From assembly GCA_043754535.1 (NCBI GenBank), contig JAYUUN010000081.1, positions 1-33,248 on the forward strand: a DNA stretch of 33,248 nt. Direction: 5' to 3'. Positions 14,226-32,683 of this stretch are shown here, in pieces. The notes beneath the pieces are model-generated. The model saw only the letters and a list, made by a program, of their open reading frames with translations, was not told the DNA's origin and did not search any database. The first letter of the stretch is position 1. Every line of letters starts with the position of its first letter. The position numbers were made by a program, and so were the translations under genes. This DNA is from Chloroflexota bacterium. GTDB taxonomy: Bacteria; Chloroflexota; Chloroflexia; QHBQ01.

Positions 14226-17200
14226 ATGATTGTGACCACCCACACTATGAGCAGCGAACAATCTCTCCCTCAGGCCGCCACCAGCGGGCGGCAAGCAGCA
14301 GTCGGCATTGTACTAGCGGGGCTGCTAGCTGCCTGGCTTGTCTTTGTCTTTGTCGCCTTCGACCAGGAGTTCGCGGCAGGCAAGGGGCAGGCTCCAGAGT
14401 ATTTCGCCCAACTGCGCTACATGAGCAGTTCGCCCTTCAGTGGCTTGCTGAACACTGCGCCCTGGCTGCGGCAGAGTGGTACTGCCAGCCTCGCCAGTTG
14501 GACGCTGACCACGGAAAGGTGGGGTTCCCTCGGCTATATCTTCCAGCTACCAACCGTGGGTGGGCTACTGCGGGCAGCAGGCCACCTGCTGGCGGGCGGC
14601 GGGCTGTTGTTGCTCACCCTCGCGCTCGGTCTCTGGCTGGCGCGGTTGCTGCGCCTACAACTGGATGACCCACCACTAATCCTGCTGCCATTGCTGGCGG
14701 GACTGGGCTACTGCGGCGTGTACACCGTCTACACCCTGCTCACACTCGGCCACCTGCTCTACCCCTGGATTACTTATAGCCTCACAGGGCTGCTGCTGGC
14801 GGGCGCGCTGCTAACGCTGGCAAGGGAGCGGAGTAGAGTGCGGGCCTGGTGGCGCACTCATCTCCCCCATCACCACCACCCCAGGGAGCGGTGGCGGGGA
14901 TTGGACTGGTTCCTGCTGGGCGTACTGCTAGTCACGGCCCTGCTCAACCTGGCGACGGCGTTGGCTCCGCCAGTGCTGAACGACGCACTGCTCTATCATC
15001 TCGCCCTGCCAAAGGTCTATCTGCAACACAACGGCTTCGTGCCAGTCTACAATACCTTCTTCATCCTGATGGCCGAGGGCATGGAGATGCTCTATGCCTG
15101 GCCGATGAGCCTGTTTGGGGCGCAGAACATCAGTGGCGGGATCACCAGCAGCCTGCTACACTTTAGTATTGGCATCCTGACCACCGTATTTAGCTACGGC
15201 GTGGCCCGTCGCTTTGGCCTCAGTCGCACTGCCGGGCTGATCGTTGCCTGCTGCTTCTTGGTTACGCCACTGGTTGGTCGCGAGGTCGGCACTGCATACG
15301 TGGATGTTGGCACTGCCTACTTCAGTGTCCTCTGCCTCTGGACACTCTACCGCTACTGCACCGCCAGCCACTATTCAGGGCTAGCGATCCGCTGGCTGGT
15401 GGCGGCGGCTCTGTTTGCGGGTATGGCTAGCGAGGTGAAGCTCTTTGCGGTCACGCTGTTCCCAGTGATCGCGGTGGCAGTGCTGGGCAAGTGGTGGACG
15501 GTTAGCCGCCGGGAGGGTATTCGGCCAGCGCGGACGCTGCGGGGCTATCTAGCAGCCGGGCTGGTGGCAGCGGTGGTGGGCGGGCTGTTCGCTTCGCACT
15601 GGTATATCGTAAGCTGGATGGTGCTGGGCAATCCCATCTGGCCGGTCGCCAACCTCAAGCTGGGGGGCTGGTTCTGGAACGAGCAGGCGGAGGCTAGCTA
15701 TCAGCAGATCGTGCGCATCTTCTTCTACTCAAACGAAGGTGCGCCCTTCACCCTCGGCAACCTTGCCCGCTATGCCAGCTGGGACTTCTCACTAGCCAAT
15801 ACCTTGCCGATCCCGCGTGGGGGGCCGCTGTCGCCGCGCACAGTCCCACTGCTGACTGCATTGCTGCCCCTTGGCACTATCCCGCTCTGCACCTGGCTGG
15901 TGGGCAGATTGAGGGGGCGCAAGCTAGCGGCGGTGGCAGCCCCAAGCTACCAGGCACCAGCGATAGCCCCCATCCTTTGGGGCGTAGCCTACAGCGTGGC
16001 CTTCCTGGTCTTCTGGTTTGTAGTGCAGGGGCAGTTGCGCTATCTGCTGTTCAGCCTACCGCTGTTCGGGCTGCTGGCGGGCTGGAACTACGACTGGTTG
16101 CGACGGAGGTGGCCGCTGACTGCCTTGCCGCTCAACCTCTTTCTGGTGGCGGCAATCCTGGTCACCAGCCTGGCGAACCTGAGCTTCAACGCCCGCGCCT
16201 TCAGTTCTGTCTACGGTAGGGTTGACGATGCTAGCTATGTGCAGGATCGGGCGGCGATTCGCTGGGGCGAGCAGTGGCAGACAATGCGTTACCTCAATCG
16301 GGCGGCTACGCCCCAAGAGGCAGTGCTGTTCGTTGACCTGGTGCCACTCTACTACCTCGACCGCGACTTCGTGATTAGCGACCCTGGCCGCGATAACTTC
16401 CTGGCTTATGAGCAACTGAAGACCGCTGCCGACTTCAAGGCACGCCTGGATGCGGGCAACTTCCGCTACTTCAACCACAACCGCGAAGCCACCTCGCTGG
16501 CCCCGCTCGACCTCGGCGCAGAGTGGGCTGGGCGCACACAGTACACGCACCTGGAGTACGTGCAGGGTAGCTGGTACACCTACCGCAAGGATGCGGAGCC
16601 GACGGCGCAGGTGGACGCGAGCAAGATCATCAACCCCCCGATGGACGGCTCTCAGGGGAATATGTGTACCCTCGGCTATGATGGCGCAAACCCCCTAACC
16701 AGCCTGGGGGCGTGGGGCTGGGTGAGCCTCGACGGTCTGGATCGTCTCAGCAGCCAGCGGCTAGCAAGTTGCACCCTCTTGCTCGTCAATCGGCACTCGC
16801 GACCACTACCGCCGCTGACCGTCCAGGATGATGACGCAGTGCAGCCTACCGATCCCGCTACGCTGGCGGTCGCCCTCAGGCGGGAGGGGGGGAGCAGGCT
16901 AGAGACCGCCGATTATTCGGTCTACCCAGTTGATGGCAGGCGGGCTAACGTTCCCTCGAAGCTGCGCCAGATGCTGGGCCTAACCCAGGTGATCGACCTC
17001 AAGCCCTGGTCGGCGACGAACGGCACGGCGGCGATCAGCTTTGAGGTGCTGACTCGCAACCCCCTCGTTCCGCGCCCGCTGCTCGGTGCCAGCGTGCCGC
17101 TGACCACCAGCCTCGTGCCAGAGCCGTTCTTCCAGCCCGACGGCATCAGCCTCGCGCTGACTGGTACCCTGACCCCAACTGCCGCGCTGAAGACTGCCGC

Positions 17201-17594
17201 TCCGCTGAAGCTAGATATGCTTGCCAATGGCAATCCCATACTGCCAGCGATCAGCGCAACGGTGCAAAGTGCCGCTACGCCATTGGACGTGCGGGCGCAG
17301 CGGGCGATAGCCTTCCACCTACGCCTCAGCCTGGGCGCGCAAGTGGAGGTTTCAGCCAGTGTGGACGGCCAGTTCCGCATCCTGGAGGCTGCCTTCAACG
17401 GTACAGGCGATGGGGTGGACGACACGCTAATCTTGCCGATCCCCGCGGACGCAAAGCAGATCGGCCAGCTAACCTTTCGCATCAGCGCACCCCCTGGCGG
17501 CACTGCCAACCTGCGTGACTTCACCTTGCACTATGGCGGCGGCCAACCAGCCGCCAACTTCGCCCTGCTCGGACTGGACCTGCTGGCGAAGTGA
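14226..17594 (+). CDS. large polytopic membrane protein, GT-C fold glycosyltransferase-like, with long soluble C-terminal extension
   Basis: Many TM helices. PP..DAL.YHLALPK loop, AYVD, GNPIWP and LRYLL motifs typical of PMT/ArnT-like GT-C proteins. Start may be ATG 14247. Confidence 0.75.
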   Translation: MIVTTHTMSSEQSLPQAATSGRQAAVGIVLAGLLAAWLVFVFVAFDQEFAAGKGQAPEYFAQLRYMSSSPFSGLLNTAPWLRQSGTASLASWTLTTERWGSLGYIFQLPTVGGLLRAAGHLLAGGGLLLLTLALGLWLARLLRLQLDDPPLILLPLLAGLGYCGVYTVYTLLTLGHLLYPWITYSLTGLLLAGALLTLARERSRVRAWWRTHLPHHHHPRERWRGLDWFLLGVLLVTALLNLATALAPPVLNDALLYHLALPKVYLQHNGFVPVYNTFFILMAEGMEMLYAWPMSLFGAQNISGGITSSLLHFSIGILTTVFSYGVARRFGLSRTAGLIVACCFLVTPLVGREVGTAYVDVGTAYFSVLCLWTLYRYCTASHYSGLAIRWLVAAALFAGMASEVKLFAVTLFPVIAVAVLGKWWTVSRREGIRPARTLRGYLAAGLVAAVVGGLFASHWYIVSWMVLGNPIWPVANLKLGGWFWNEQAEASYQQIVRIFFYSNEGAPFTLGNLARYASWDFSLANTLPIPRGGPLSPRTVPLLTALLPLGTIPLCTWLVGRLRGRKLAAVAAPSYQAPAIAPILWGVAYSVAFLVFWFVVQGQLRYLLFSLPLFGLLAGWNYDWLRRRWPLTALPLNLFLVAAILVTSLANLSFNARAFSSVYGRVDDASYVQDRAAIRWGEQWQTMRYLNRAATPQEAVLFVDLVPLYYLDRDFVISDPGRDNFLAYEQLKTAADFKARLDAGNFRYFNHNREATSLAPLDLGAEWAGRTQYTHLEYVQGSWYTYRKDAEPTAQVDASKIINPPMDGSQGNMCTLGYDGANPLTSLGAWGWVSLDGLDRLSSQRLASCTLLLVNRHSRPLPPLTVQDDDAVQPTDPATLAVALRREGGSRLETADYSVYPVDGRRANVPSKLRQMLGLTQVIDLKPWSATNGTAAISFEVLTRNPLVPRPLLGASVPLTTSLVPEPFFQPDGISLALTGTLTPTAALKTAAPLKLDMLANGNPILPAISATVQSAATPLDVRAQRAIAFHLRLSLGAQVEVSASVDGQFRILEAAFNGTGDGVDDTLILPIPADAKQIGQLTFRISAPPGGTANLRDFTLHYGGGQPAANFALLGLDLLAK

Positions 17595-17607
17595 TGAGGA
17601 GATAAAG

Positions 17608-18564
17608 ATGACAGTAGAGACACAAGCCAGTGCGATCAAGGTGCTGTTTATGGGTACGCCTGCCTTCGCGGTGCCAAGCCTGCGGGCATTGGTGGCGGCG
17701 GGCTACAAGGTAGTGGCGGTCGTCACCCAGCCGGATCGCCCAGCAGGGCGGGGGGGAGCGTTGGCCCAACCGCCGATCAAGCTAGCCGCCCACGAACTGG
17801 GCCTGCCAGTGCTGCAACCGCCAAAGCTACGCTCGCCAGAGGTCGTCGCCGAACTGCAAACTCTCGGCTACGATCTGGCAGTGGTGGCTGCCTATGGCGA
17901 AATCCTGCGGCCCAACGTGCTGGCAATCCCGCCCCTTGCCAACCTCAATGTCCACGCCTCCCTGCTCCCTCGCCAGCGCGGAGCCGCCCCGATCAACGCG
18001 GCGATCCTTGCTGGCGACCAGCAGGCAGGGGTGACGATCATGCTGATGGATGCAGGGATGGACACTGGCCCAATGCTGGCCCAGCGGGCGATCCCTGTAG
18101 CAGCGGCGGAGACGACTGCCAGCCTGACGGTGAAGCTGGCCGACCTCGGCGCAGAGTTGCTGCTGGCGACCCTACCTGCTTACCTGGGTGGCACCCTCCA
18201 GCCCCAGGCGCAAGACAATGCGCTGGCTACTTACACCAGCCCACTGCAAAAGGATGACGGTAAGGTGGATTGGGCGCAGCCAGCCGCGCAGATCGAACGG
18301 ATGGTGCGCGCCTACGACCCCTGGCCTGCGGCCTTCACCCACTGGCAAGGCAAGCGGCTGAAGCTGGTCAGGGTGGCCGTGGCTGCGCCCGCTAGCGAGG
18401 AGGCAGTAGGCGCAGTCTATCGCCGCACAGATGGGCAGGTGGCAGTACGCTGTGGTACGGGCGACCTGTTGCTGCACGAGGTGCAGCTTGAGGGTAAGGG
18501 ATCGACAGCAATCAAGGCCTTCGTCAACGGCTACCAGGAGTTTGTAGGCAGCAAGCTGGGTTTA
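17608..18564 (+). CDS. fmt: methionyl-tRNA formyltransferase (ends at TTA 18562-18564 if UUA terminates; standard-code stop 18636)
   Basis: FMGTPAFAV, VVTQPDRPAGRG, NVHASLLP..RGAAPI, MDAGMDTG, VQLEGK, family-like end GSKLG. SD AGGAG before ATG 17608. Confidence 0.95.
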
Positions 18565-18583
18565 GCCACCTTTGTGCTGGCAA

Positions 18584-18618
18584 GCAGAAGGGAGATGCGT
18601 TGTGCATCTCCCCTCTGC
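18584..18618. terminator. hairpin between convergent fmt and STAS genes
   Basis: GCAGAAGGGAGATGC / GCATCTCCCCTCTGC, 15-bp stem with one mismatch and a 5-nt loop. Confidence 0.65.
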
Positions 18619-18645
18619 CAACCCACGTCGTCCTGACCGTGCTGG

Positions 18646-18990
18646 CTAGACAGCAGCAGAGAGGGCGGCTTGTTCACTCTCGTAAATGGTAGCGAACTGA
18701 TCCAGGCCAACCATGTGGAATATCTTTTGGTAATGCGAACTGAGGCTGGTTAGCACCACCCGACGGCCATTGGTACGCGCCCGGTTGAGCAGGCTGAGGA
18801 TGATGGCGATGCCTGCACTGTTGATGTAGCTGGCTTCCTCAAAATTGAGTACGATCAGCTTGCCGCTATCGGTGGCCGCAGTGTAAGCCGTCGTCAGGAT
18901 CGCATCCGAGGTGGCCGTTACATCCCCCAGCAGGTCAACTATACTAGCGTTTTCCAGGTGGCGCAGGTTCGTTTGCAATTCGTTACTCAC
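18646..18990 (-). CDS. STAS-domain anti-sigma factor antagonist (RsbV/SpoIIAA-like)
   Basis: 114 aa. IVLNFEEASYINSAGIA phosphoserine motif and IFHMVGL. Confidence 0.9.
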   Translation of the reverse strand: MSNELQTNLRHLENASIVDLLGDVTATSDAILTTAYTAATDSGKLIVLNFEEASYINSAGIAIILSLLNRARTNGRRVVLTSLSSHYQKIFHMVGLDQFATIYESEQAALSAAV

Positions 18991-19041
18991 TTTGTTCTAA
19001 CCCCTTCTCCAATTTCAGCGGTGGCTGGTAGTCACAAGTCG

Positions 19042-19503
19042 CTATTGCAGCCCCATCTTAGCAAGGCTAGCGAGTGCGTGCTTGAGGTAGATCGTCATCC
19101 GTACTAGGCTACCCTCTGGCAGACGAGTCACTTCGACTTCATCCATCAACTGGGTGATCAGGAACATCCCCATGTTGCCATGGGTACCGAGCGGTGGGTT
19201 ATCCACAGTCAGTGGCTCTGTAATGCGCGGGGCAGTCTCGCCACGTCCCTCGTCAAGAACGTTGACATCGAGGCGATCATCTTCGCAGATCATCAGCACG
19301 TTTACTTCGCTGTCTTGAGCAAACTGGTTGCCATGCTCCATCGCGTTGAGGCAGGCTTCGGCCACTGCCGTACGGAGGTCATCCACCCGCGTCGGCTCAA
19401 AACCCATCTGGCGGGCAACAGCACTAGCGGCATCCATAGCCACCTTCTCAAAGCCAAGCACGCTAGGTACGTGCAGTTCGATCCTGTATCTGCTGTGCGT
19501 CAT
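19042..19503 (-). CDS. anti-sigma factor / serine kinase (RsbW-like HATPase)
   Basis: From ATG 19503: LRTAVAEACLNAMEHGN, VLDEGRG, GNMGMFLITQLMDEV. The track's 5' extension overlaps the riboswitch and is spurious. Confidence 0.9.
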   Translation of the reverse strand: MTHSRYRIELHVPSVLGFEKVAMDAASAVARQMGFEPTRVDDLRTAVAEACLNAMEHGNQFAQDSEVNVLMICEDDRLDVNVLDEGRGETAPRITEPLTVDNPPLGTHGNMGMFLITQLMDEVEVTRLPEGSLVRMTIYLKHALASLAKMGLQ

Positions 19504-19578
19504 GAACGCCTCGTTGCCCCCCACTCTGTATATTCCACCCCAAGCTATGGCCCATCCACGGCAGTCCCCGTTGGCTGG

Positions 19579-19608
19579 ATCATAGCACCTTTTACATCTC
19601 GTTGTCAA
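19579..19608 (-). promoter_or_regulatory. promoter of the rsbW/rsbV-like pair
   Basis: Minus strand TTGACA (19608-19603), 18 bp spacer, extended -10 TGcTATGAT (hexamer 19584-19579). Confidence 0.65.
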
Positions 19609-19614
19609 GCCAGG

Positions 19615-19643
19615 TTGACAGCATCGAACAGGTTCGTTATAAT
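19615..19643 (+). promoter_or_regulatory. consensus sigma70 promoter of the riboswitch-ribXY transcript
   Basis: TTGACA (19615-19620), 17 bp spacer, TATAAT (19638-19643). Confidence 0.85.
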
Positions 19644-19658
19644 AATCACAACTGAATA

Positions 19659-19790
19659 GGTTCTCAGGGCAGGGCGCAATCCCCGACCGGCGGTGAGCCA
19701 TTATTGGCAAGCCCGCGAGCTGCATTAGCCATGTGGCATGACCTGGTGCAAAGCCAGGGCCGACAGTTACAGTCTGGATGAAAGAGAACC
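19659..19790 (+). ncRNA. FMN riboswitch (RFN element)
   Basis: P1 GGTTCTC/GAGAACC. AGGGCAGGGCGCAATCCCCGACCGGCGGT, AGCCCGCGAG, CTGGTGCAAAGCCAG, GCCGACAGT, AGTCTGGATGAAAGA match the RFN consensus. Confidence 0.95.
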
Positions 19791-19883
19791 ACACGCGAAC
19801 CATCCCCCGCACGATTGTTGTGTGCTACTGGGCTGGGTCGGCTCCAGCCGGGTGCTGCAATGTGCCTGTTGGCTTCGTGTTCC

Positions 19884-19919
19884 CCCTGCCCTGAAGAATG
19901 TGTGGCGGGGCTTTTTGTT
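19884..19919 (+). terminator. candidate attenuator of the FMN riboswitch
   Basis: CCCTGCC / GGCGGGG stem followed by CTTTTTGTT. Confidence 0.5.
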
Positions 19920-19937
19920 GCCCCAGGAGGTAGGGCG

Positions 19938-20759
19938 ATGATCAGCACAGCAGGGACGGAACGACAGGCGGAATTGGACGGCAACGAAGTGGCGGTGAAG
20001 CGGCGGCGCAAGCGTGCTGCCCGCGGCAAGGGCTGGCTCAACCTGCTCAGTTTTGCCAGCTTCCTTGCCCTCTGGCAGGCAGTGGTTTGGCTAGGCGGCT
20101 ACCCCAGCTTCATCCTACCCGGCCCCTGGGCGGTGCTGATCCGCTTCGGTCAGGCGATCCAGAGTGGGCTGCTGTGGGATAACACGCTGGTTACGCTAGG
20201 CGAGATCGCCCTCGGCTTTGGCCTGGGGGCAAGCGGGGGGCTACTGCTAGCCTACCTGCTCTACAAGTCGCGGTTGCTGGAAACGATCCTCGCCCCCTAC
20301 ATCGCCGCCAGCCAGGCTCTGCCAGTGGTAGCGATAGCCCCACTGCTCGTTCTCTGGTTCGGCTACGGTCTGTTGCCAAAGGTGCTGATCTGCGCGATCA
20401 TCGTCTTCTTCCCAATCACGATCAGCACAGTCGTCGGCTTCAAGAGCATCGAGCGCAGCCTGGTTGAGGTGGCCGACCTGTTCGGGGCGAACGGCTGGCA
20501 GAAGCTGCGGCTGGTCGAGGTGCCACTGGCCGCCCACAATATCTTCGCTGGCCTTCGTCTCGGCCTCACCCTCTCCGTTACCGGGGCAGTGGTGGGCGAG
20601 TTCGTCTCCCCCAGCCGCGGATTGGGCTACCTGCTCAACTTCAGCAGCAGCAGCCTGGATGCGCCGTTGCGTTTCGTCGCGCTGTTTACCCTCGTTGCCC
20701 TCGCTATCCTCGGCTACCGCAGCCTGACCGCCCTTGAACGCCGTTTGGTGGACTGGTAG
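19938..20759 (+). CDS. ribX: riboflavin ABC transporter permease (SsuC/TauC-like)
   Basis: SD AGGAGG, ATG 19938. QALPVVAIAPLL.LWFG and GAVVGEF motifs. Sits directly under an FMN riboswitch, as in Chloroflexi ribXY. Confidence 0.8.
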   Translation: MISTAGTERQAELDGNEVAVKRRRKRAARGKGWLNLLSFASFLALWQAVVWLGGYPSFILPGPWAVLIRFGQAIQSGLLWDNTLVTLGEIALGFGLGASGGLLLAYLLYKSRLLETILAPYIAASQALPVVAIAPLLVLWFGYGLLPKVLICAIIVFFPITISTVVGFKSIERSLVEVADLFGANGWQKLRLVEVPLAAHNIFAGLRLGLTLSVTGAVVGEFVSPSRGLGYLLNFSSSSLDAPLRFVALFTLVALAILGYRSLTALERRLVDW

Positions 20760-20832
20760 CCGATCAGCAACTTTGTACAGACCAACTACAGCATACATCA
20801 CATCACATAAGATTGCATAGGAGATTAGCGCA

Positions 20833-21846
20833 TTGCAGAAGCTCAAAGGATTGTTGTTGCTAATAACGATGGTAGGGTTGGTAGCGGGCTGCGACAGTGG
20901 GGGGACAGCTAACACCCCGGCTGCTGCGTTGAAGAAGGTTAGGATTGGCATGGGCTACATCCCCAATGTGCAGTTTGCTGCCTACTACGTTGCCCAGGAG
21001 AAAGGCTACTACCGACAGGCGGGCCTCGATGTCAGCTTCGATTATGGCAGCACAGACGATCTGCTGGCCCAGGTTGCGGTCGGTAAGCTCGACTTCGCCA
21101 ACTCAGAGGGCGACGAACTGATCGTGGCAGCTAGCAAGGGAGTGAAGGATGTCTACGTCCTTGCCCAGTACCAACGCTTCCCAGTAGCGGTCTTCTTTAT
21201 GGCCGACTCGCCGATCAAGACGGTAGCCGACCTGAAGGGCAAGCGGATCGGCCTGCCTGGTAAGTACGGCGCAAACTACAACGGCCTGCTCGCTATGCTC
21301 TACGCCAACCAGATGACAGAGCAGGATGTGCGGCTGCAAGAGGTTGGTTACACCCAGGCCCAGGCGGTGCAGAGCGGCCAGGTAGACGCTGCGGTGGGCT
21401 ATGCAGTCAACGAGCCGATAGCATTGGCGGCTCAGGGCGTGAAGCTACGTACCTTGCAGGCCAGCGACAGCTACAATCTCGCTAGCATCGGCATTATCAC
21501 CAGCCAGGACAAGGTGGCCCAAGACCCCACAACCGTACAAGCCTTTGTCAGCGCGACCCTGCACGGCATTGCCGACATGAACGCCGACCCCGACGCGGCC
21601 TATGCTATCGCGGCAAAGAAGGAGTACGCTAACATTGACCAGCCGAACAGCGCAGTGCAACTGGCTGTGCTGAAGGAGACGGCGAAGTTTCAGCAGCCGA
21701 GTGGCAACCAGAGGCTGGGGGCGAGCGACCCGGCGGTGTGGGCCGCGACCGCAAAGTTCCTGCAAGCCAGCGGCCTGGTCAGCACGCAGCTAGATGTCAG
21801 CACCCTCTACACCAACCGCTTCGTCGAGGCTAGCCGGGTAAAATTA
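20833..21846 (+). CDS. ribY: riboflavin-binding lipoprotein (NMT1/THI5-like); ends at TTA 21844-21846 if UUA terminates, standard-code stop 21918
   Basis: Lipobox LVAGC, GYIPNVQFAAYYVAQEKGYY..AGLDV, DLKGKRIG.PG, C-terminal YTNRFV. Riboswitch context. Confidence 0.82.
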
Positions 21847-21942
21847 AGGCTGGCACGCGAGATGCTTGTAGAGCAATCAACTGTCCAAAAAGGAGATTAT
21901 CCACCCTGCGTGAGCTAGTCTAGTCGAACTACGGACAAGAAA

Positions 21943-21971
21943 ACGCGCCCCCTGTATACAGAGGGGCGCGT
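21943..21971. terminator. terminator between convergent ribY and lipoprotein genes
   Basis: ACGCGCCCC / GGGGCGCGT stem, with a TTTCTTG tail on the minus strand. Confidence 0.75.
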
Positions 21972-21993
21972 CCTTGTCGCTGGCGAAGGCCAC

Positions 21994-24099
21994 TTACGGA
22001 GCGGTGATGTCACCGACCTGGTTGACCTTGGTGATGGTGTAGATGACATTGCTCTCGGTAGCACCGGTCTTGCTGTAAGCCTTGACCTGGCGGGTGGTCT
22101 TGTCGCTCTTGGCAACCCAGACCTCGTACTTGCCTTCAGTACCGTTGGCGGCACCGTCGTAGGCGTAGTGGTCGCAGTCCTCGCCACCGATGGCCTCGCT
22201 ACCTTTGTTCTGGTAGCCGTTGAAGCCCTTGAGGCTGGAGAAGGTGTTGCTGAGGATACTGTCGTAGGCACCTACGATAGCCTGGCCGCCAGTGGTCTTG
22301 GTGTAGCTCTTACCGTCCATGCTGACGTAGGCATCCTCACCGATAACCACGTAGTTGATCTTGGTGCCAGAACTCTCGATCACCATGTTGGCCTTGTCGG
22401 GGCGGATGAAGTCACCTTCTACTTTGGAGGTGGTGGTGGTACCACTGGTCGTGCTTTCCGAGGTAAGGGCAAGGTGGTAGCTCTTGACGTTGGAGAGGTC
22501 AGCCACGTCGAGGGTACCTGCGCTGGTGCCGCCAGTGCCGCTAGTGCCACCAGTGCCACTCACGGAGGTGGCCGCAGCGGTTGCGCCCATCTCCATGTCG
22601 GGGGTGGCTTCGCTGGTCATGCCCATCGCTGGGGTAGCATCGCCCGTCATGGGGGTCATTGCGCTAGCAGGGTCGGTGACATTGCTCGGCTCTGCAATGG
22701 TCAGCGGCTCGTTGATCTTGCTCCACTTGAGCGTAGCCATGATCTTCTGACCGCTACTGGTACCATCGATCTTCATCTGGCGGATGGTGGGTGTGCCGTC
22801 GTTCGAAATCCAGATGTCGTAGCTGCCAGTCATGCTGCTGCTGCCGCCACTGGTTCCCAGGCTGCTCAGTGCCGCTGCGTCGGCTACGATGTGCTTGGTG
22901 TCAACGCCGTCGATCTTCTCAGTGGCGGGGCTGCCGTCCTTGAGCGCAGAGGCTGCCTTGTCAATGTCTGATGGCTTGAAGTTATCCCACATCTTGGTAA
23001 AGCTGTCCAGGCCGCTGGCGGAACCGCTAGCACTCTTGATGTAGGTCTTGCCACCATCCGCACTCATGTAGCTACCTTTGTCGGTCACTACCACGTCAGC
23101 ACTCCGACCAGCCGCGTTCATCTGCATGGACATCTTGTTGTTGGCAACGTCTATGTCGCCCGTCATGGTTATGCTCTGCCCCGCACTGTTAATGTCAGCC
23201 TCCAGACGGTAGCTCTTGAGCGCCTTCATGTTGGCTGCTGCGCTCTTGAACATCTCGGCATTGCCGCTGCTACTACCGCCGCCGTTGCCGTTGCTAGAAG
23301 CGGCAGTGGGGGTGCCGTCGCTCATCATCGTGCCAGCGGTTGGGGTGCTGTCGCCCATCATCGTGCCAGCGGTCGGGGTGCTGTCGCCCAGGCTGCCGCC
23401 GGTGCTGAGGTTGGTCGGCACCTTGATGTCGAAGGTCTGGTTGATCTTGCTCCACTTGACGGTGGCAACAACATCCTTGCCGTCGCTCTTGCCAGTGATT
23501 TTCATCTGGCGCACCAGCGGGGTTGCGTCGGTGGATATCCAGAGGTCTGCCGTGCCTTCAGTAGAGGACATACTGGTACTGCTGCTGGTCGTAGCAGAAA
23601 GGCCGCTGAGGTCCTTCAGATTGACGGTCATGTGCTTGGTGTCAACGCCGTCGATCTTCTCGGTGGCGGGCGCGCCGTCCTTCAGCGAGTCCTTCGCTTT
23701 GTCCACATCTTCAGGCTTGAAGCTGTCCCACATCTTGGTGAAACTGTCCAGGCCAGTGCTGGTGGTGCTATCCTTGGTGAAGGTCTTGCCGCCATCCATG
23801 CTGGTGTAGCTAGCTCCATCAACAGAGACGGAGTTGATGTTCATGCCCATTGCACCCATGGTCGCTGAGACCTTCTTGTTGGCAACGTCTACGTCGCCGC
23901 CCATCGTAATGTTTGTGCCAGCCTGGCTGGCAGTCACATCGAGGCGGTAACTCTTGAGGGCCTTCATGTTCGGCCCGGCCTTCTTGAGCAGGTCGGCATT
24001 GCTAAGGCTGCCACTGCCACTGTCGCCACAGGCGGCCAGGATCAGGCTCATGATCGCTACCATCGCTAGCACACTGATGCGCTGCTTGAAACTACCCAT
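21994..24099 (-). CDS. lipoprotein with three LppX/LprAFG (LolA-like fold) domains and Thr/Pro/Met-rich linkers
   Basis: Lipobox LAAC, SD GGAGG. Three repeats of MKxLKSY...E.IDG.DT.H...W.......RQ.K...K.N....I..P. Confidence 0.75.
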   Translation of the reverse strand: MGSFKQRISVLAMVAIMSLILAACGDSGSGSLSNADLLKKAGPNMKALKSYRLDVTASQAGTNITMGGDVDVANKKVSATMGAMGMNINSVSVDGASYTSMDGGKTFTKDSTTSTGLDSFTKMWDSFKPEDVDKAKDSLKDGAPATEKIDGVDTKHMTVNLKDLSGLSATTSSSTSMSSTEGTADLWISTDATPLVRQMKITGKSDGKDVVATVKWSKINQTFDIKVPTNLSTGGSLGDSTPTAGTMMGDSTPTAGTMMSDGTPTAASSNGNGGGSSSGNAEMFKSAAANMKALKSYRLEADINSAGQSITMTGDIDVANNKMSMQMNAAGRSADVVVTDKGSYMSADGGKTYIKSASGSASGLDSFTKMWDNFKPSDIDKAASALKDGSPATEKIDGVDTKHIVADAAALSSLGTSGGSSSMTGSYDIWISNDGTPTIRQMKIDGTSSGQKIMATLKWSKINEPLTIAEPSNVTDPASAMTPMTGDATPAMGMTSEATPDMEMGATAAATSVSGTGGTSGTGGTSAGTLDVADLSNVKSYHLALTSESTTSGTTTTSKVEGDFIRPDKANMVIESSGTKINYVVIGEDAYVSMDGKSYTKTTGGQAIVGAYDSILSNTFSSLKGFNGYQNKGSEAIGGEDCDHYAYDGAANGTEGKYEVWVAKSDKTTRQVKAYSKTGATESNVIYTITKVNQVGDITAP
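23323..23388. repeat. 33-bp tandem duplication (GDSTPTAGTMM x2)
   Basis: CATCATCGTGCCAGCGGT(T/C)GGGGTGCTGTCGCC at 23323-23355 and 23356-23388. Confidence 0.9.
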
Positions 24100-26198: not shown

Positions 26199-27962
26199 CT
26201 ACTGGGCGGTCTCCGCTTCGGTCGCGTCAATCGTTCCGTCGCTGCCGTGATCCACCTCAACCATCAGTGGCTTGCCCGCGTCCCATGCGCCGAAGTTGAG
26301 GTACTCGGTGTCGCCACCGTTGATCTTAACATCCTTGTGCATGATGGTGTGCGAACCAGTCGCGTCGATCTCGGTCAGTTCGATGTCGTACTTGTCAGGA
26401 CTGCCTGAAGAGTCCTTGACCGCCAACTTGCCGGTTGCCTCATCGATGCTGAAGTCAAGTTCCTCACCTCTGCCAGCATCCAGGTTGTTGATCTTGATCA
26501 GGTAGTCGTGACCCTCCTGGTCAATCGCCAGCGTGATGTTGGGCGACTGGTTCTCGCCTGGTGCATAGGCAATCTTGTGGCCGTCAGCAGAGACAGTCAA
26601 GTTGTCCCGCTGCCCAGCAGTCAACTTCATGTTCTTGATGTTGGCAACTACGCCCTGACCGAAGATGGACAGCTCCTCCGCGTTGATATCCGTACCGTCC
26701 GGCCCATCCACCACCACGGTGTAGTCCACACCCTGGGGCAGGTTGTAGTACGGCTCCTGGTCGGAGACCAAAGCCCCACCGTGCAAGATCACCTCGTGTG
26801 CGCCGGGGATAGTGTTGACCAGCTTGCCGTTCTCAATACCGAGCTTGTTGCCCGCCTTGTCGGTGATCATCAGGTGGCCGGGGCCGTTGAGGATCATCTG
26901 GCGGGGCTGGCCCGCGCTGCCGTCGGTAGCATTGCACCAGGGGCAGACCAGGGGCCCCTGCCGCACCCGCAAGCTGGTAAGGTCCATTGGATAGCTACCA
27001 ACACCACCAGACCAGGGGGCAGCATCCTCCGTGGGGTTGAGGGCCGCAGATGCATACTTCCAGGTGTTGGCGGTGCGGTCAACCTCCACGTACTTGTCCA
27101 CGCCAGGGTAGTTGTTGTCGTAGACGTGGATAAGGTAGAGGCCGTTGCCCTTGTCCTCAATGGAGTAGGGAGTGACGGCGTGGCCGCCGCCCTTGAAGTA
27201 GAAGCCGAGGGTGTATTGGTCAGCAGCCCCAGGCTTGAACGAGGCGATCAGCATATCGAGGATTTCGCTGGGCGACTTGCGGCGGGTGGCAGCCGACTCG
27301 CTGGCGACCGGCTCTACTCCCTGGTAGGCCCAGCCAACCGAAATCAGGCTGCGGAGCTTGTCGTTCCCTTCCAGCTTGAGGTCGAAGGGGCTGTCCGCGC
27401 CATAGTCGGCGGCCTTAGCCTTACCCTCGTACATCAGCAAGGTAGCGACGGCAAAACCTTCGCAACTACCGCCGTTGATACCCTTGTTCTGCTGATCGAG
27501 CCATTGCAGGGCTGCCGTGCCAGGCACGCAAGTGGCACCGCTACCGGTCGCGCACACGGCCTTGTCACCAAACATCTGGCGGGTATCGGTGATGGTCAGA
27601 CCAGCAGGAGTTTCTGGGTACTTGCCGCCGTAGTTGGGGAAGCTGAAGCCATTGGGCTGAGAGCGGAAGCCGATGTCAGCAGTCGTCCCACCAGGCACAG
27701 CCGCCGCCACCGTGTCGGTTGGGACAGCAGCCGCCCCTGCTACTGTGTTGGTGGGGGCAGCAACCATCACATCGGTTGGGCCAGCATCATTCTTGGCGAT
27801 GCTGGTGCCGGTTGGGGCAACGGCAGCCGAGGCTAGCGTCGCGGTTGAGGCCGCAGCAGGCGCAGTAGCCGGGGGGGAGTCGCCGCCGCAGCCAGCCAGC
27901 GATAGGCTGATAGTCAGCAGTAGAACCAAAGCCATGAGCTTCTGGTGGTGAGGTTTGTACAT
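26199..27962 (-). CDS. lipoprotein with putative papain-like Cys-His-Asp domain
   Basis: Start ATG 27962 (track extends to 28205). Lipobox LAGC, Ala/Thr/Pro linker, GFSFPNY, GGSCEGF, GGHAV, VYDNNYP. Confidence 0.7.
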   Translation of the reverse strand: MYKPHHQKLMALVLLLTISLSLAGCGGDSPPATAPAAASTATLASAAVAPTGTSIAKNDAGPTDVMVAAPTNTVAGAAAVPTDTVAAAVPGGTTADIGFRSQPNGFSFPNYGGKYPETPAGLTITDTRQMFGDKAVCATGSGATCVPGTAALQWLDQQNKGINGGSCEGFAVATLLMYEGKAKAADYGADSPFDLKLEGNDKLRSLISVGWAYQGVEPVASESAATRRKSPSEILDMLIASFKPGAADQYTLGFYFKGGGHAVTPYSIEDKGNGLYLIHVYDNNYPGVDKYVEVDRTANTWKYASAALNPTEDAAPWSGGVGSYPMDLTSLRVRQGPLVCPWCNATDGSAGQPRQMILNGPGHLMITDKAGNKLGIENGKLVNTIPGAHEVILHGGALVSDQEPYYNLPQGVDYTVVVDGPDGTDINAEELSIFGQGVVANIKNMKLTAGQRDNLTVSADGHKIAYAPGENQSPNITLAIDQEGHDYLIKINNLDAGRGEELDFSIDEATGKLAVKDSSGSPDKYDIELTEIDATGSHTIMHKDVKINGGDTEYLNFGAWDAGKPLMVEVDHGSDGTIDATEAETAQ

Positions 27963-28223
27963 TCTTCCTTGTTCCTTCCTTCTTGTAACGGTGGATGTAG
28001 CTGTGCCGAGGCGCGATCCAGCACACAACTGCCTACCAGCCGGAGCAGACCTGCCCAGGCTGGCTGAACAACTTCTCAGCAGGTGTAAGTATACTACTTT
28101 GTAGCAGGCTTGCATAGCACCTAACGCCAGTAGTTTGGCACGAGTTTGGCGACCGCCCGCTAGCCAGCAACGGCCCACGGTTGCCAGGATGCGGGCAACC
28201 TCCAACCTTCACCAGCAGCACTG

Positions 28224-29236: not shown

Positions 29237-31273
29237 TTAGCTGCACTCGATCTTGACGAAGCGACGCTTGCCCGCCCGTACGATCAGCCCAGCTACCGGC
29301 TTGACGCTGGCATTGGGGTCACTCACCTTCTGCTCATCCAGGCTGACCCCACCTTGCTCGACCAGGCGGCGAGCCTCCTTGCGGCTGGGCGCGAGGCCAC
29401 ACTTGAGCAGCAGGTCAAGAATGTTGGTCGATTCGCAGGCTAGCTGGGCCGTGGGGATTTCATCGGGCAACCCCTTGTCTTGGAACACGGTGGCGAAGTG
29501 TTGCGCCCCGGCCTCGGCCCCCACATCGCCATGATAGAGGCGCACAATCTCGGAGGCTAGCCGCTTCTTCGCCAGCATTGGGTTCTGGCCTGCCGCGAGA
29601 TCGACCCTGATCTGCTCGATCTCAGCTAGTGGCACCTCAGTGGTAGCAACAAAGTAGTCCACGATCTGCTCGTCACTCAGGCTCATCACCTTGCCGTACA
29701 TATCAGCTGGCGCGTCGATGATGTTGATCGTGTTGCCCCAACTGCTGCTCATCTTACGCCCATCCAGACCCATGATCATCATATTAGTGATGATCTGCTG
29801 CGGGTTTTGGCCGTAAGCCTTCTGGATCACCCGCCCCGCTGTCAGGTTGAACAACTGGTCGGTGCCACCCAACTCTATGTCGGCGCGCACTGCTACGCTG
29901 TCGTAACCTTGCATCAGCGGGTAGAGGAACTCTTGCAGGCCAATCGGCTTGTCATCCTCCCACCGCTGCTTGAAGTTCTCGCGCTGGATCATCTGTGCGA
30001 CGGTGAACTGGCTAGCAAGGCCGATCAGGGCTGCGAAGTTCATCTGGCCTAGCCACTCGCTATTGAAGCGGAACTCCACCTCACCCTGATCGAGGATGCT
30101 CCTGATCTGGTCAATATAGGTCGCCATGTTCTGGCCCACCTGGGCTGCCGTCAGCATTGGGCGGGTAGCATCCTTGTCGCTGGCATCACCAAGCTGGCCG
30201 GTCACATCGCCGATGATAATCACTGCCTGGTGGCCCAGCTTCTGAAACTGGCGCAGCTTGCGGATCGCTACCGCCCGCCCGATGTGTATTTTGCTGCTGG
30301 TTGGGTCAATGCCGAGCTTGACCCGCAGTTGCCGCCCGCTCCGCAGCAGCTTTGCCAAATCCTCACGCACAATCACATCCACCACTCCCCGCGTCAGGAT
30401 ATCCTGGATCGCCACCTCATCAGTGCTGATCTTTGGGGGGGCCAGCATCTTCTCGGCCTCTGGCGGGGCGGTTGGTAGCGGTTGGCTAGCCTGGTCGCCG
30501 ATGATCTCGCTCATGTCGCTGATCAGCGGGTCTGCGAGGTCGAGGTCGTCGTCCGGCCAGGAGCAGCGGGGGTGTTGGCGGTCAAGGTGGAAGGTGCGCA
30601 CCTGCCCACCCAGTTGCTCATGCACCAGCTTCGCCAGCTCGTCAGTGGCGGCGCGCACCTGCTCCTCGTTGACCCCTAGCCAGCCGTCAATAGGGAGAAA
30701 GACGGCCACGCTGTCCTCACGTATCTTCGCTCCATTGCCCTGCCGCCAAACCCAGCGGCGGGTTCGCACCTGGTTGCTGTCGTCCACGTAGACAAACTCA
30801 CCAGCGGGCAGTTGCTCCGGCTCGCCCGGCTCGTCGTCACCGCCAAGAGGCTGAAAGAGGTCGCCCTCACGAGCGGGGCGCAGGGTGATGTCGCCGACGG
30901 TGCGATCCAGGTCGTGTGCGCCAATCGGCAGCAGGTACTTGAGAGCGACGCTGTTTGCCAGGTCTACCAGCGGGTTGATGTGGGGCAGCTTGCCTTTAAT
31001 CGCCCGGCCAGCTAGGGCCTCGATGCTGACGGGGTACTTGTTGGCGTTGATACCGAGGGCGGTGAACGCCTGCCGCCAGGCTGCAATGCCGGGGCTAGCT
31101 TGCAGGGCAGAGAGGCTGGCATACTGCGCCCGCAGATCGGTAATCGCCTGATCTAGGAGGAAGTCTATCGCCTCGTCATCGGCATAGTCCTGCCCCACCC
31201 CATGAGCGACCACCACGCCGAGGTAGAGGTTGGGGAACCGTTCAAGTACCGCCTGATCAATCGTGAAGTGCAT
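29237..31273 (-). CDS. tyrS: tyrosine--tRNA ligase with N-terminal B3/4 (PheRS-beta editing-like) domain
   Basis: ATG 31273 after GAGGT. B3/4: AWRQAF...YPVSIEAL...INPLVDLAN...GEFVYVD...RRWVWRQ. TyrRS: KLGIDPT..IHIGR, YPLMQGYD, GGTDQ, KMSSS, C-terminal S4 domain. Confidence 0.92.
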   Translation of the reverse strand: MHFTIDQAVLERFPNLYLGVVVAHGVGQDYADDEAIDFLLDQAITDLRAQYASLSALQASPGIAAWRQAFTALGINANKYPVSIEALAGRAIKGKLPHINPLVDLANSVALKYLLPIGAHDLDRTVGDITLRPAREGDLFQPLGGDDEPGEPEQLPAGEFVYVDDSNQVRTRRWVWRQGNGAKIREDSVAVFLPIDGWLGVNEEQVRAATDELAKLVHEQLGGQVRTFHLDRQHPRCSWPDDDLDLADPLISDMSEIIGDQASQPLPTAPPEAEKMLAPPKISTDEVAIQDILTRGVVDVIVREDLAKLLRSGRQLRVKLGIDPTSSKIHIGRAVAIRKLRQFQKLGHQAVIIIGDVTGQLGDASDKDATRPMLTAAQVGQNMATYIDQIRSILDQGEVEFRFNSEWLGQMNFAALIGLASQFTVAQMIQRENFKQRWEDDKPIGLQEFLYPLMQGYDSVAVRADIELGGTDQLFNLTAGRVIQKAYGQNPQQIITNMMIMGLDGRKMSSSWGNTINIIDAPADMYGKVMSLSDEQIVDYFVATTEVPLAEIEQIRVDLAAGQNPMLAKKRLASEIVRLYHGDVGAEAGAQHFATVFQDKGLPDEIPTAQLACESTNILDLLLKCGLAPSRKEARRLVEQGGVSLDEQKVSDPNASVKPVAGLIVRAGKRRFVKIECS

Positions 31274-31300: not shown

Positions 31301-32683
31301 TAACCGCTTGCCGCTCAGTCGATTGAGTACTCGCATGACGCGGCCACTCTGCACAGCGGTCAGGTGCGCCTGCATGACAGCCAGTTGTTGGCGCAGGTTG
31401 GCGATCTCGTCCTCCAGGTTCTGCACCCGCGCCGCCCCGCTCATGGGCGAGGCCGCTTGCCCGTAATCGGGCAGGTGGGCGGCCAGCAACTCAGCGTCAC
31501 TCAGGCGGGCCTGCTCTGCACCAAAGCGTTTGAGGCGGGCAATGGCTTCGTGTTCGCGGTAGGCCAGTTCGCTACCAACCACAGGCTGGGCGGCGGTCTG
31601 CTGCCGCTTGCGCTCGGTCAGCATCTCTAGCAGGGGAAGGAACTGCTGTGACCGCGCTTCGGGCGTGTAGCGCACAAACACGTCGTCGAAGGCCGCTCTG
31701 CCGATACGCACCCGCTCCGCAGGGTCGAGCAGCCGATAGATCGCCGCCGCCCACTCGTCGTCGCCGCTGGCTAGCAGGCCGTTCTCGCCGTCGCGGATCG
31801 CTTCCCGAAAGGCGGGAGTGGGGCTGGCGATAGTGGGTACGCCGACCACCCCGGCCTCAAAATACTTCAGCTCGCTCTTTGCCATCGCGAACGGGTTGTC
31901 CAGTTCGAGGGGGGCGAGGTTGATGTCAGCCTGGGCCTGGATGCTGGGCAGTTGCCGCCAGGGAACGAAGCCGAACCGCTGCACCCGTGCTGTCCCTTCG
32001 TACTGGAACAGTGGCTCTGGCAGGCTCAGGTAGCCGCCAACCAGTAGCCTCACCTCTGGCCGCTCGCTCATCACCCGTGCCAGGGCAGGGACGACCAGAG
32101 CAAAGTCGCGGCTGTGGCTAGGCGAGCCGCTCAGGTAGCAGATGGTGATCGTAGCTGGGTCGCTGGTTGCCGCAGGCTGGGTGGCGAAAGCTGGTTGCTG
32201 CTGGGTAGCATAGATGATCTGGTCGTCGTAGAGGGCGTTGCGATTGACAAAAGCAGGCTTGCCGGTCTGCTCCGTCACCTGCGCGGCCAGGTAGGGGGTG
32301 CTGGTCAGGGCGAAGTCGCACTGGTCGAGGGTGGCGCGGTTGGCCGCGAACTGGCGCAGGTGCAGGGCGGTGTCCGCAGGCGGCATCTGGTAGAGCAGGT
32401 CGATCCGCTGGGCCAACTCTGGCAGGAATACAAGGTCATCGGTATCGTAGAGCGCAAGTTGGCCGCGATCCTGGATCACCGCCAGCATGGCGGCCACGGT
32501 CGGGGTGTAGCTGGCCCGGCAGAAGATGAAGGTGTCGTAGTCGCCCAGGTCGGCCAGCAGCAGCGGGTCGTCGGCGGAGCGCACAGCAGCGGCCACCCCT
32601 GCGAACCAGAGTTGCTCGGCCTGGTGCCAGGCGCGGTAACGCTCGGTGTCGCCGCTCCAACCAGCAATGAACAGTACCTTCAC
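31301..32683 (-). CDS. GT-B (GT4-like) glycosyltransferase with C-terminal coiled coil; in the standard code it reads through into tyrS
   Basis: GTG 32683 after GGAG. RYRAWHQAEQL, YDTDDLVF, GSPSH..D, DINLAPLE..NPF..AKSELKYFEAG..GVPTIAS. Tail VQSGRVMRVL is typical of polysaccharide-cluster proteins, then TTA at 31303-31301. Confidence 0.85.

Follow-up and report, generated by a model that had tools for sequence, protein, structure and literature searches.

The window analysed here, a stretch of 33,248 nucleotides from a Chloroflexota bacterium (contig JAYUUN010000081.1 of assembly GCA_043754535.1), carries a gene for methionyl-tRNA formyltransferase (fmt) that starts with the ATG at 17608 and is followed by a hairpin and a convergent gene for an anti-sigma factor antagonist (table 1). 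The 3' end of fmt reads GGC AGC AAG CTG GGT TTA G (18547-18565), with the protein ending in GSKLG and the TTA standing at codon 319 of the frame; the preliminary description had called it the sole in-frame TTA of the gene, and a count along the frame bears this out. The protein belongs to the TIGR00460 equivalog (292.7 bits, with a cut-off of 201.5), and the match, which pairs Fmt residues 11-314 with model positions 2-309 of 315, ends just before the TTA. Directly 5' of fmt lies a gene for a 1122-aa membrane protein (14226-17594, plus strand) with no NCBIfam match.

Table 1. Features of the window, and the tRNA-Leu(UAA) genes of the sister genus.
Feature	Position	Strand	Remarks
fmt, methionyl-tRNA formyltransferase	17608..18564	+	318 aa with TTA read as stop
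TTA, predicted stop codon of fmt	18562..18564	+	
Apparent table-11 read-through tail of fmt	18565..18636	+	most likely not translated; carries a frameshift in the sister species
Hairpin between convergent genes	18584..18618	.	14 pairs, one mismatch; lacks a U-tract; might act as a terminator or stabilise the RNA end
Convergent anti-sigma factor antagonist gene	18646..18990	-	stop TAG
Second terminal TTA, end of ABC substrate-binding protein gene	21844..21846	+	unchanged in four of four runs
Third TTA, splitting a 1187-aa table-11 frame	31301..31303	-	
tRNA-Leu(UAA), G002	L353:1487-1570	-	sister genus
tRNA-Leu(UAA), G004	L355:1487-1570	-	sister genus
tRNA-Leu(UAA), G003	L356:1379-1461	+	sister genus

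The fmt end and other terminal TTAs of the window

The idea that Fmt proteins typically end around an LG does not hold in general: only five of 28 orthologs from outside the window's genus stop exactly at this position, and since the C-termini run on for a further 0-12 residues (median 2), fmt alone is only suggestive. No C-terminal extension is shared, the table-11 tail being common to none of the orthologs outside the genus. In a sister species of the same genus (G001), fmt has the same TTA, in the context GGT TTA A, and the tail that table 11 would add there is frameshifted and 59 codons long, versus 24 codons in the window. An assembly or homopolymer error concealing GGT TAG is excluded by this sister sequence and by contigs from four of four sequencing runs (four studies), which span 17500-22000 and show no substitution or indel at the site; these are assembled contigs, not raw reads, and two of the four runs are flagged as a possible source of the window DNA.

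The hairpin begins 20 nt past the TTA and extends to 18618, as the preliminary description had it, but the 15 bp given there are in fact 14 pairs and one mismatch. Its folding is more stable than expected (z -2.75, with 2 of 200 shuffles equally stable), and it is conserved in G001, where one pair is G-U and the loop differs; the terminator scan made no call at this place. The hairpin is consistent with a 3' untranslated region, although by itself it is weak evidence.

Two more TTAs in the window stand at apparent gene ends. Reading through the one that closes the ABC substrate-binding protein gene (20833-21846) would append 23 codons under table 11, and the one inside the 1187-aa table-11 frame separates a glycosyltransferase (32800-31301) from a protein with a B3/4 domain plus TyrS that starts at ATG 31273. 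After the split, the latter (29237-31273, minus strand) is a 678-aa protein with the B3/4 (PheRS-beta editing-like) domain ahead of tyrosyl-tRNA synthetase. The table-11 frame 26199-28205 has two TTAs close to its 5' end, at 28088 and 28124 (minus strand), and the gene probably starts downstream of both; under table 23 the frame is 26199-28028. The proposal that a TTA stands in fmt where a stop belongs is supported and, as described below, holds across the whole genome and family. The fmt TTA is one case of a genome-wide pattern in which, to judge from the sequences, UUA would end translation.

TTA at gene ends across the genome and the family

In the genome of the window (G000; 3.87 Mb, 61% GC, 89% complete), TTA occupies only 22 of 550,240 interior codons, and it accounts for 85 of the 40,620 codons found in the last 20 positions of table-11 frames, a 51-fold excess over the interior. 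This end enrichment, for which the other sense codons were checked without reference to their amino-acid meaning, is unique to TTA, the next codon, AGA, reaching only 4.9-fold. When TTA is allowed as a fourth stop, coding-like segments of at least 100 codons, delimited by a codon model made and trained on G000 with TTA scored as neutral, end in TAG 1063 times, TGA 794 times, TAA 611 times and TTA 215 times (8% of 2,683). The coding score drops across TTA from about +0.17 to about -0.23, like at canonical stops, and the next canonical stop follows after a median of 19 codons, versus 17-22 after canonical stops. A start ATG overlaps the terminal codon in 25 of 215 cases for TTA (TTATG), 75 of 794 for TGA (TGATG) and 25 of 611 for TAA, and the following base is C after 12% of TTA, 16% of TGA and 48% of TAG codons. 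The terminal TTAs are not shadows of TAA on the opposite strand, with which only 11 of the 215 coincide. UAA, UAG and UGA still serve as stops in this genome, TTG is found at 14 per 1000 interior codons, and tRNA-Leu(CAA) is present.

Coding-like sequence flanks 23 TTAs of G000 on both sides; with a loose ribosome-binding-site filter, 18 of these read as gene junctions and four as antisense shadows, and one is left unclassified (contig C103, minus strand, 85515). Genes at the junctions include what we take, from sequence motifs, to be LeuB, a thiolase, TldD/PmbA and RNase PH; the names of the glycosyltransferase and TyrS of the window do not depend on such motifs. A 1573-aa table-11 frame on contig C1 (minus strand, 35224), resembling a GT-C/GH35 'fusion', has a single in-frame TTA, placed where the domains meet, with GGAGG and an ATG behind it, and is probably two genes rather than a fusion.

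Comparison with G001 (87% complete; 1.2 Mb of about 4.3 Mb sampled for ortholog ends) yielded 759 shared ends that are 92.7% identical. The terminal codon is kept in 45 of 51 cases for TTA, 133 of 170 for TAA, 253 of 294 for TAG and 218 of 244 for TGA, i.e. 78-89% for the canonical stops. TTA changed to CTA three times (one of these looks misaligned), to GCA once and never to TTG, and it was exchanged with a canonical stop in five cases, two of them in cleanly aligned ends. Frameshifting indels occur within the 45 nt 3' of the shared TTA in 9 of 45 genes, versus 2 of 45 upstream, and in 158 of 600 genes after canonical stops; mismatches downstream are spread flat over codon positions, with no third-position bias. 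The sequence 3' of TTA scores and evolves like untranslated DNA.

Arginyl-tRNA synthetase, ArgS, was found in 28 of 29 genomes searched. The protein ends at the same Met, followed by TAA, TAG or TGA, in 26 of the 28; in G000 and G001 a TTA comes right after that Met, and the tails behind it (nine and five residues) are unrelated to each other. Five outgroup ArgS copies carry interior TTA. Segments ended by TTA were likewise obtained from the other family genomes: 60 of 872 in G001, 29 of 276 in G002, 16 of 113 in G003 and nine of 79 in G004, from samples of 1.2 of 4.3, 0.44 of 4.8, 0.16 of 3.9 and 0.13 of 5.2 Mb, respectively. Among these 114 segments, 40 matched NCBIfam models (E 1e-25) and 74 had no match. 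In 39 of the 40, every listed match (the best five for each segment) stops before the TTA, and matches to ArgS, FabG, CinA and a prenyl synthase reach the model end one or two residues ahead of it; for FabG the support is that of the profile end, not of an ortholog-end comparison. The remaining matched segment is an epimerase/dehydratase pair, in which the second gene has its own ribosome-binding site and ATG past the TTA. In G003 (L141:9345-10307, minus strand), a TTA and a short repeat separate the genes for NAD(P)HX epimerase and dehydratase, and this repeat recurs behind several gene ends of G003.

Per 1000 interior codons, TTA occurs 0.06 times in G000, 0.06 in G001, 0.03 in G002, 0.05 in G003 and not at all in G004, as opposed to 1.02, 1.25, 2.31 and 1.78 in sister groups whose GC is similar; apart from G000 and G001, these rates come from samples of 0.04-0.44 Mb. 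All five family genomes (G000-G004) show the pattern, and sampled sister families use TTA within genes; the five share one ancestor and are taken as one event. G007, G012 and G015 are among the outgroups used for Fmt, RF2, ArgS and the tRNA, and G034 is one of the genomes searched, but what is claimed for the family itself is independent of these four. A scan of metagenomes found no species other than this one (99.8% identical). On the evidence of these sequences, it is close to certain that TTA marks protein ends in this family.

The cognate tRNA and the release factors

We did not find tRNA-Leu(UAA) in either of the two genomes of the window's genus (G000 and G001, 89% and 87% complete). The flanks of the tRNA gene in the sister genus map to a single assembled stretch of G000 that holds another gene and no tRNA between them, and G001 matches this stretch at 94.7%. 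Sister groups have tRNA-Leu(UAA) in 20 of 26, two of two and one of one genomes, and a fourth group in five of five with a looser pattern. The same looser pattern recovered the tRNA in genus g4 and in G002-G004, where its apparent absence had been a false negative of the strict pattern. The tRNA-Leu(UAA) of the sister genus (table 1) is unusual: a C31-A39 mismatch in all three copies reduces the anticodon stem to four pairs, a compensatory change is present in one of them, and the acceptor stem is unlike that of outgroup tRNA(UAA). This tRNA looks selectively maintained, which counts against UUA being a stop; it may be a weakened relic, have a non-translational use or provide low-level read-through. 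G002-G004 also have tRNA-Leu(UAG), and G002 and G004 have tRNA-Leu(CAA). A tRNA-Pyl(CTA) called by ARAGORN in G000 (C31:4032-4124) is a poorly paired structure and is treated as false; with introns and a lowered threshold, the program gave noise. The tRNA-Arg genes on contigs C79 and C111 of G000 represent an uncommon way of reading CGN codons, with the anticodons GCG and TCG and no ACG form found; G003 (L221) has a GCG form too. G000 also has CRISPR-like arrays with several different repeats (C27, C31, C43, C50, C62 and C112), two of which had no match in an annotated phage collection, and a search of the genome for one terminase family was negative.

Each of the five family genomes has only two proteins with an RF-1 domain, and no third release factor was found in them; the closest named homologues are labelled Chloroflexi, Chloroflexota or Chloroflexia. 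RF1 keeps PxT, the alpha-5 tip and RIHTS, and was rejected as the reader of UUA: among 128 sequences (11 from the family and 117 others), its reading head shows no change specific to the family. In RF2, on the other hand, GQHRMVRISPYDSQHRRQTS is common to all 12 family sequences. Four positions that are invariant in 136 of 136 other RF2 sequences are altered in every family sequence covering them, namely the alpha-5 Asp, HRL (to HRM, adjoining the SPF loop) and two C-terminal leucines. Two more family features, SPF to SPY and RRH to RRQ, are found in 13 and three, respectively, of the 136. A DNA pattern for HRMVRISPYD was hit in five of five family genomes and in none of 396 others of the class.

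No single substitution marks the family's RF2 by itself. The H-to-Q change (RRQ) was rejected as a diagnostic mark, being present at no fewer than 120 loci elsewhere, many of them in actinomycetes; none of the matches listed has HRM, and the 80 with flanks show no enrichment of TTA at ends. The alpha-5 motif 'AREGG' proved to be order-wide. SPY, H-to-Q and V-to-Q each occur singly in other bacteria without a known code change, SPY being reported from about a third of eubacteria (PMC3472500). The serine of SPF is described as discriminating the second base (PMC11903333 and PMC6821328), and organellar reading of UUA has been associated with replacement of the invariant RF2 Ser204 by Ala, Gly or Cys (PMC12574857). 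The organellar change is not seen in G000-G004, in which both serines of the loop, that of SPY and that of QTS, are kept, either of which may correspond to Ser204. The family-type RF2 was not found in viral contigs.

If UUA is a stop, RF2 is probably its reader. It is favoured because family-specific changes hit otherwise invariant RF2 positions and none hit the RF1 reading head, because UUA alone is affected and UUG and UCA are not, as fits a factor that needs A in the third position, and because TTA and TGA are similar in the base that follows them. The link to RF2 is nonetheless a correlation within one clade, stemming from a single event.

Meaning of UUA and comparison with known systems

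That TTA still encodes leucine and is simply very rare, with the fmt stop lost by mutation or misassembly, has hardly any probability left. High-GC genomes do seldom use TTA, and Fmt C-termini do vary by 0-12 residues; however, the same codon is present in four other assemblies and in the sister species, the 51-fold end enrichment is confined to TTA, the tails are non-coding, the ArgS ends agree, and other families of similar GC have interior TTA. A more serious rival leaves UUA unassigned, a 'hungry' codon at which ribosomes stall until tmRNA tagging, drop-off or slow near-cognate release sets the protein free. G000 and G001, where no cognate tRNA was found, would suit it, as would the presence of tmRNA and the want of a single diagnostic RF2 residue. 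Yet such tagging would destroy the proteins concerned, and those ending in TTA include the housekeeping ArgS, Fmt, DnaB, MurC, MurD, FabG and RpoA. TTA is moreover no less conserved than the canonical stops, its context resembles that of TGA and it takes part in stop-start overlaps, and a third RF-1-domain protein was not found in the five genomes; we regard a hungry codon as improbable, though the least so among the alternatives.

A +1 slip of the ribosome at a hungry TTA could also bring an overlapping TAG or TAA (T-TAG, T-TAA) into frame for normal release factors. G or A indeed follows 63% of terminal TTAs in G000, versus 43% for TTA in any context, and the fmt end is TTA-G in the window and TTA-A in G001. 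But G or A also follows 60% of TGA stops, and TTA-T or TTA-C, which offer no shifted stop, make up 37% of the G000 cases and 19 of 29 in G002, leaving slippage very improbable. Scarcely more credit is due to an ambiguous UUA, mostly stop and partly leucine through the odd tRNA(UAA) of the sister genus, with regulated read-through or fusions. It has in its favour that G002-G004 kept this tRNA, with the shared C31-A39 mismatch and a compensatory pair change elsewhere; interior TTA amounts, though, to only three of 95,511 sampled codons in G002-G004, the long-tailed cases examined resemble gene junctions, and tRNA(UAA) was not found in the window's genus. This last possibility is a qualification of the best explanation, not a replacement for it.

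The best explanation, very probable on the sequence evidence, is that in the chromosome of this family (G000-G004) UUA has changed its meaning from leucine to stop and is a true release-factor stop. UAA, UAG and UGA would remain stops and UUG leucine, about 8% of G000 genes would end in UUA, and a class-I release factor, most likely RF2 relaxed at the second base (U-A/G/U-A), would terminate there. TTA may have become rare in a GC-rich genome, after which tRNA-Leu(UAA) would have been weakened (sister genus) or lost (window's genus), RF2 would have captured UUA, and TTA could have reappeared at gene ends. If true, a genome with thousands of genes can undergo a sense-to-stop change, and the family RF2 would be a natural variant of interest for genetic-code engineering and for how release factors distinguish stop codons from sense codons. 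Under table 11, about 8% of the proteins in these genomes would be given a wrong end, and false fusions would arise.

The rarity of TTA in a GC-rich genome recalls Streptomyces, in which rare TTA codons are read by the single tRNA-Leu(UAA) encoded by bldA; there, however, TTA is an interior leucine codon, whereas here it closes genes and is followed by non-coding sequence. Known bacterial code variants, such as UGA read as Trp or Gly (tables 4 and 25) and the reassigned arginine codons, are lineage-wide changes like the present one, but those described in PMC8629427 and PMC13695967 are stop-to-sense or sense-to-sense. A bacterial sense-to-stop case was not found in the open-licence literature, and a 2025 paper presents its plastid case as the first such change outside mitochondria (PMC12574857). 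Codetta is described as unable to detect sense-to-stop changes (PMC9825746), and gTranslate is limited to tables 11, 4 and 25; such screens would therefore not report UUA as a stop here, and other cases may be hidden from them.

The kind of change suggested is known from organelles and would be, as far as the literature searched goes, the first in a bacterial chromosome. The fuller claim, that the family represents the first sense-to-stop reassignment of a cellular chromosome, with four stops, RF2 reading UUA by a non-organellar route and a transition caught midway (tRNA-Leu(UAA) crippled in one genus and lost in the other), we consider likely. The closest parallels are NCBI table 23, that of Thraustochytrium and other labyrinthulean mitochondria, with UUA as a stop, and the peDinoflagellate plastids, with UUA and UCA as stops; as in the present family, UUA went from leucine to stop and occurs only at gene ends, which PMC12574857 attributes to an altered RF2-type factor. 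Table 23 indeed reads the fmt gene of the window correctly. Unlike in these organelles, the change would here concern a bacterial chromosome of 3.9-5 Mb and hundreds of genes, with UCA staying serine; the Ser204 change proposed for the organellar RF2 is not seen, other loop residues differ, and one genus keeps tRNA(UAA). Sense-to-stop changes tied to release factors are likewise described, in PMC12574857 and PMC6821328, for mitochondria of Marsupiomonadales and Pseudoscourfieldia (Pycnococcus), with UUR as stop, and of Scenedesminia, with UCA as stop. Those mitochondria involve mtRF1a and other codon sets, whereas TTG is common inside genes here and the RF1 reading head is unchanged. The fate of the cognate tRNA finds a counterpart in Saccharomycopsis yeasts, in which, according to bioRxiv 10.1101/2023.07.05.547863, a structurally irregular tRNA-Leu(CAG) is retained, the old cognate tRNA being kept in altered form after reassignment and lost in some species; that change, however, is sense-to-sense and belongs to the yeast nucleus.
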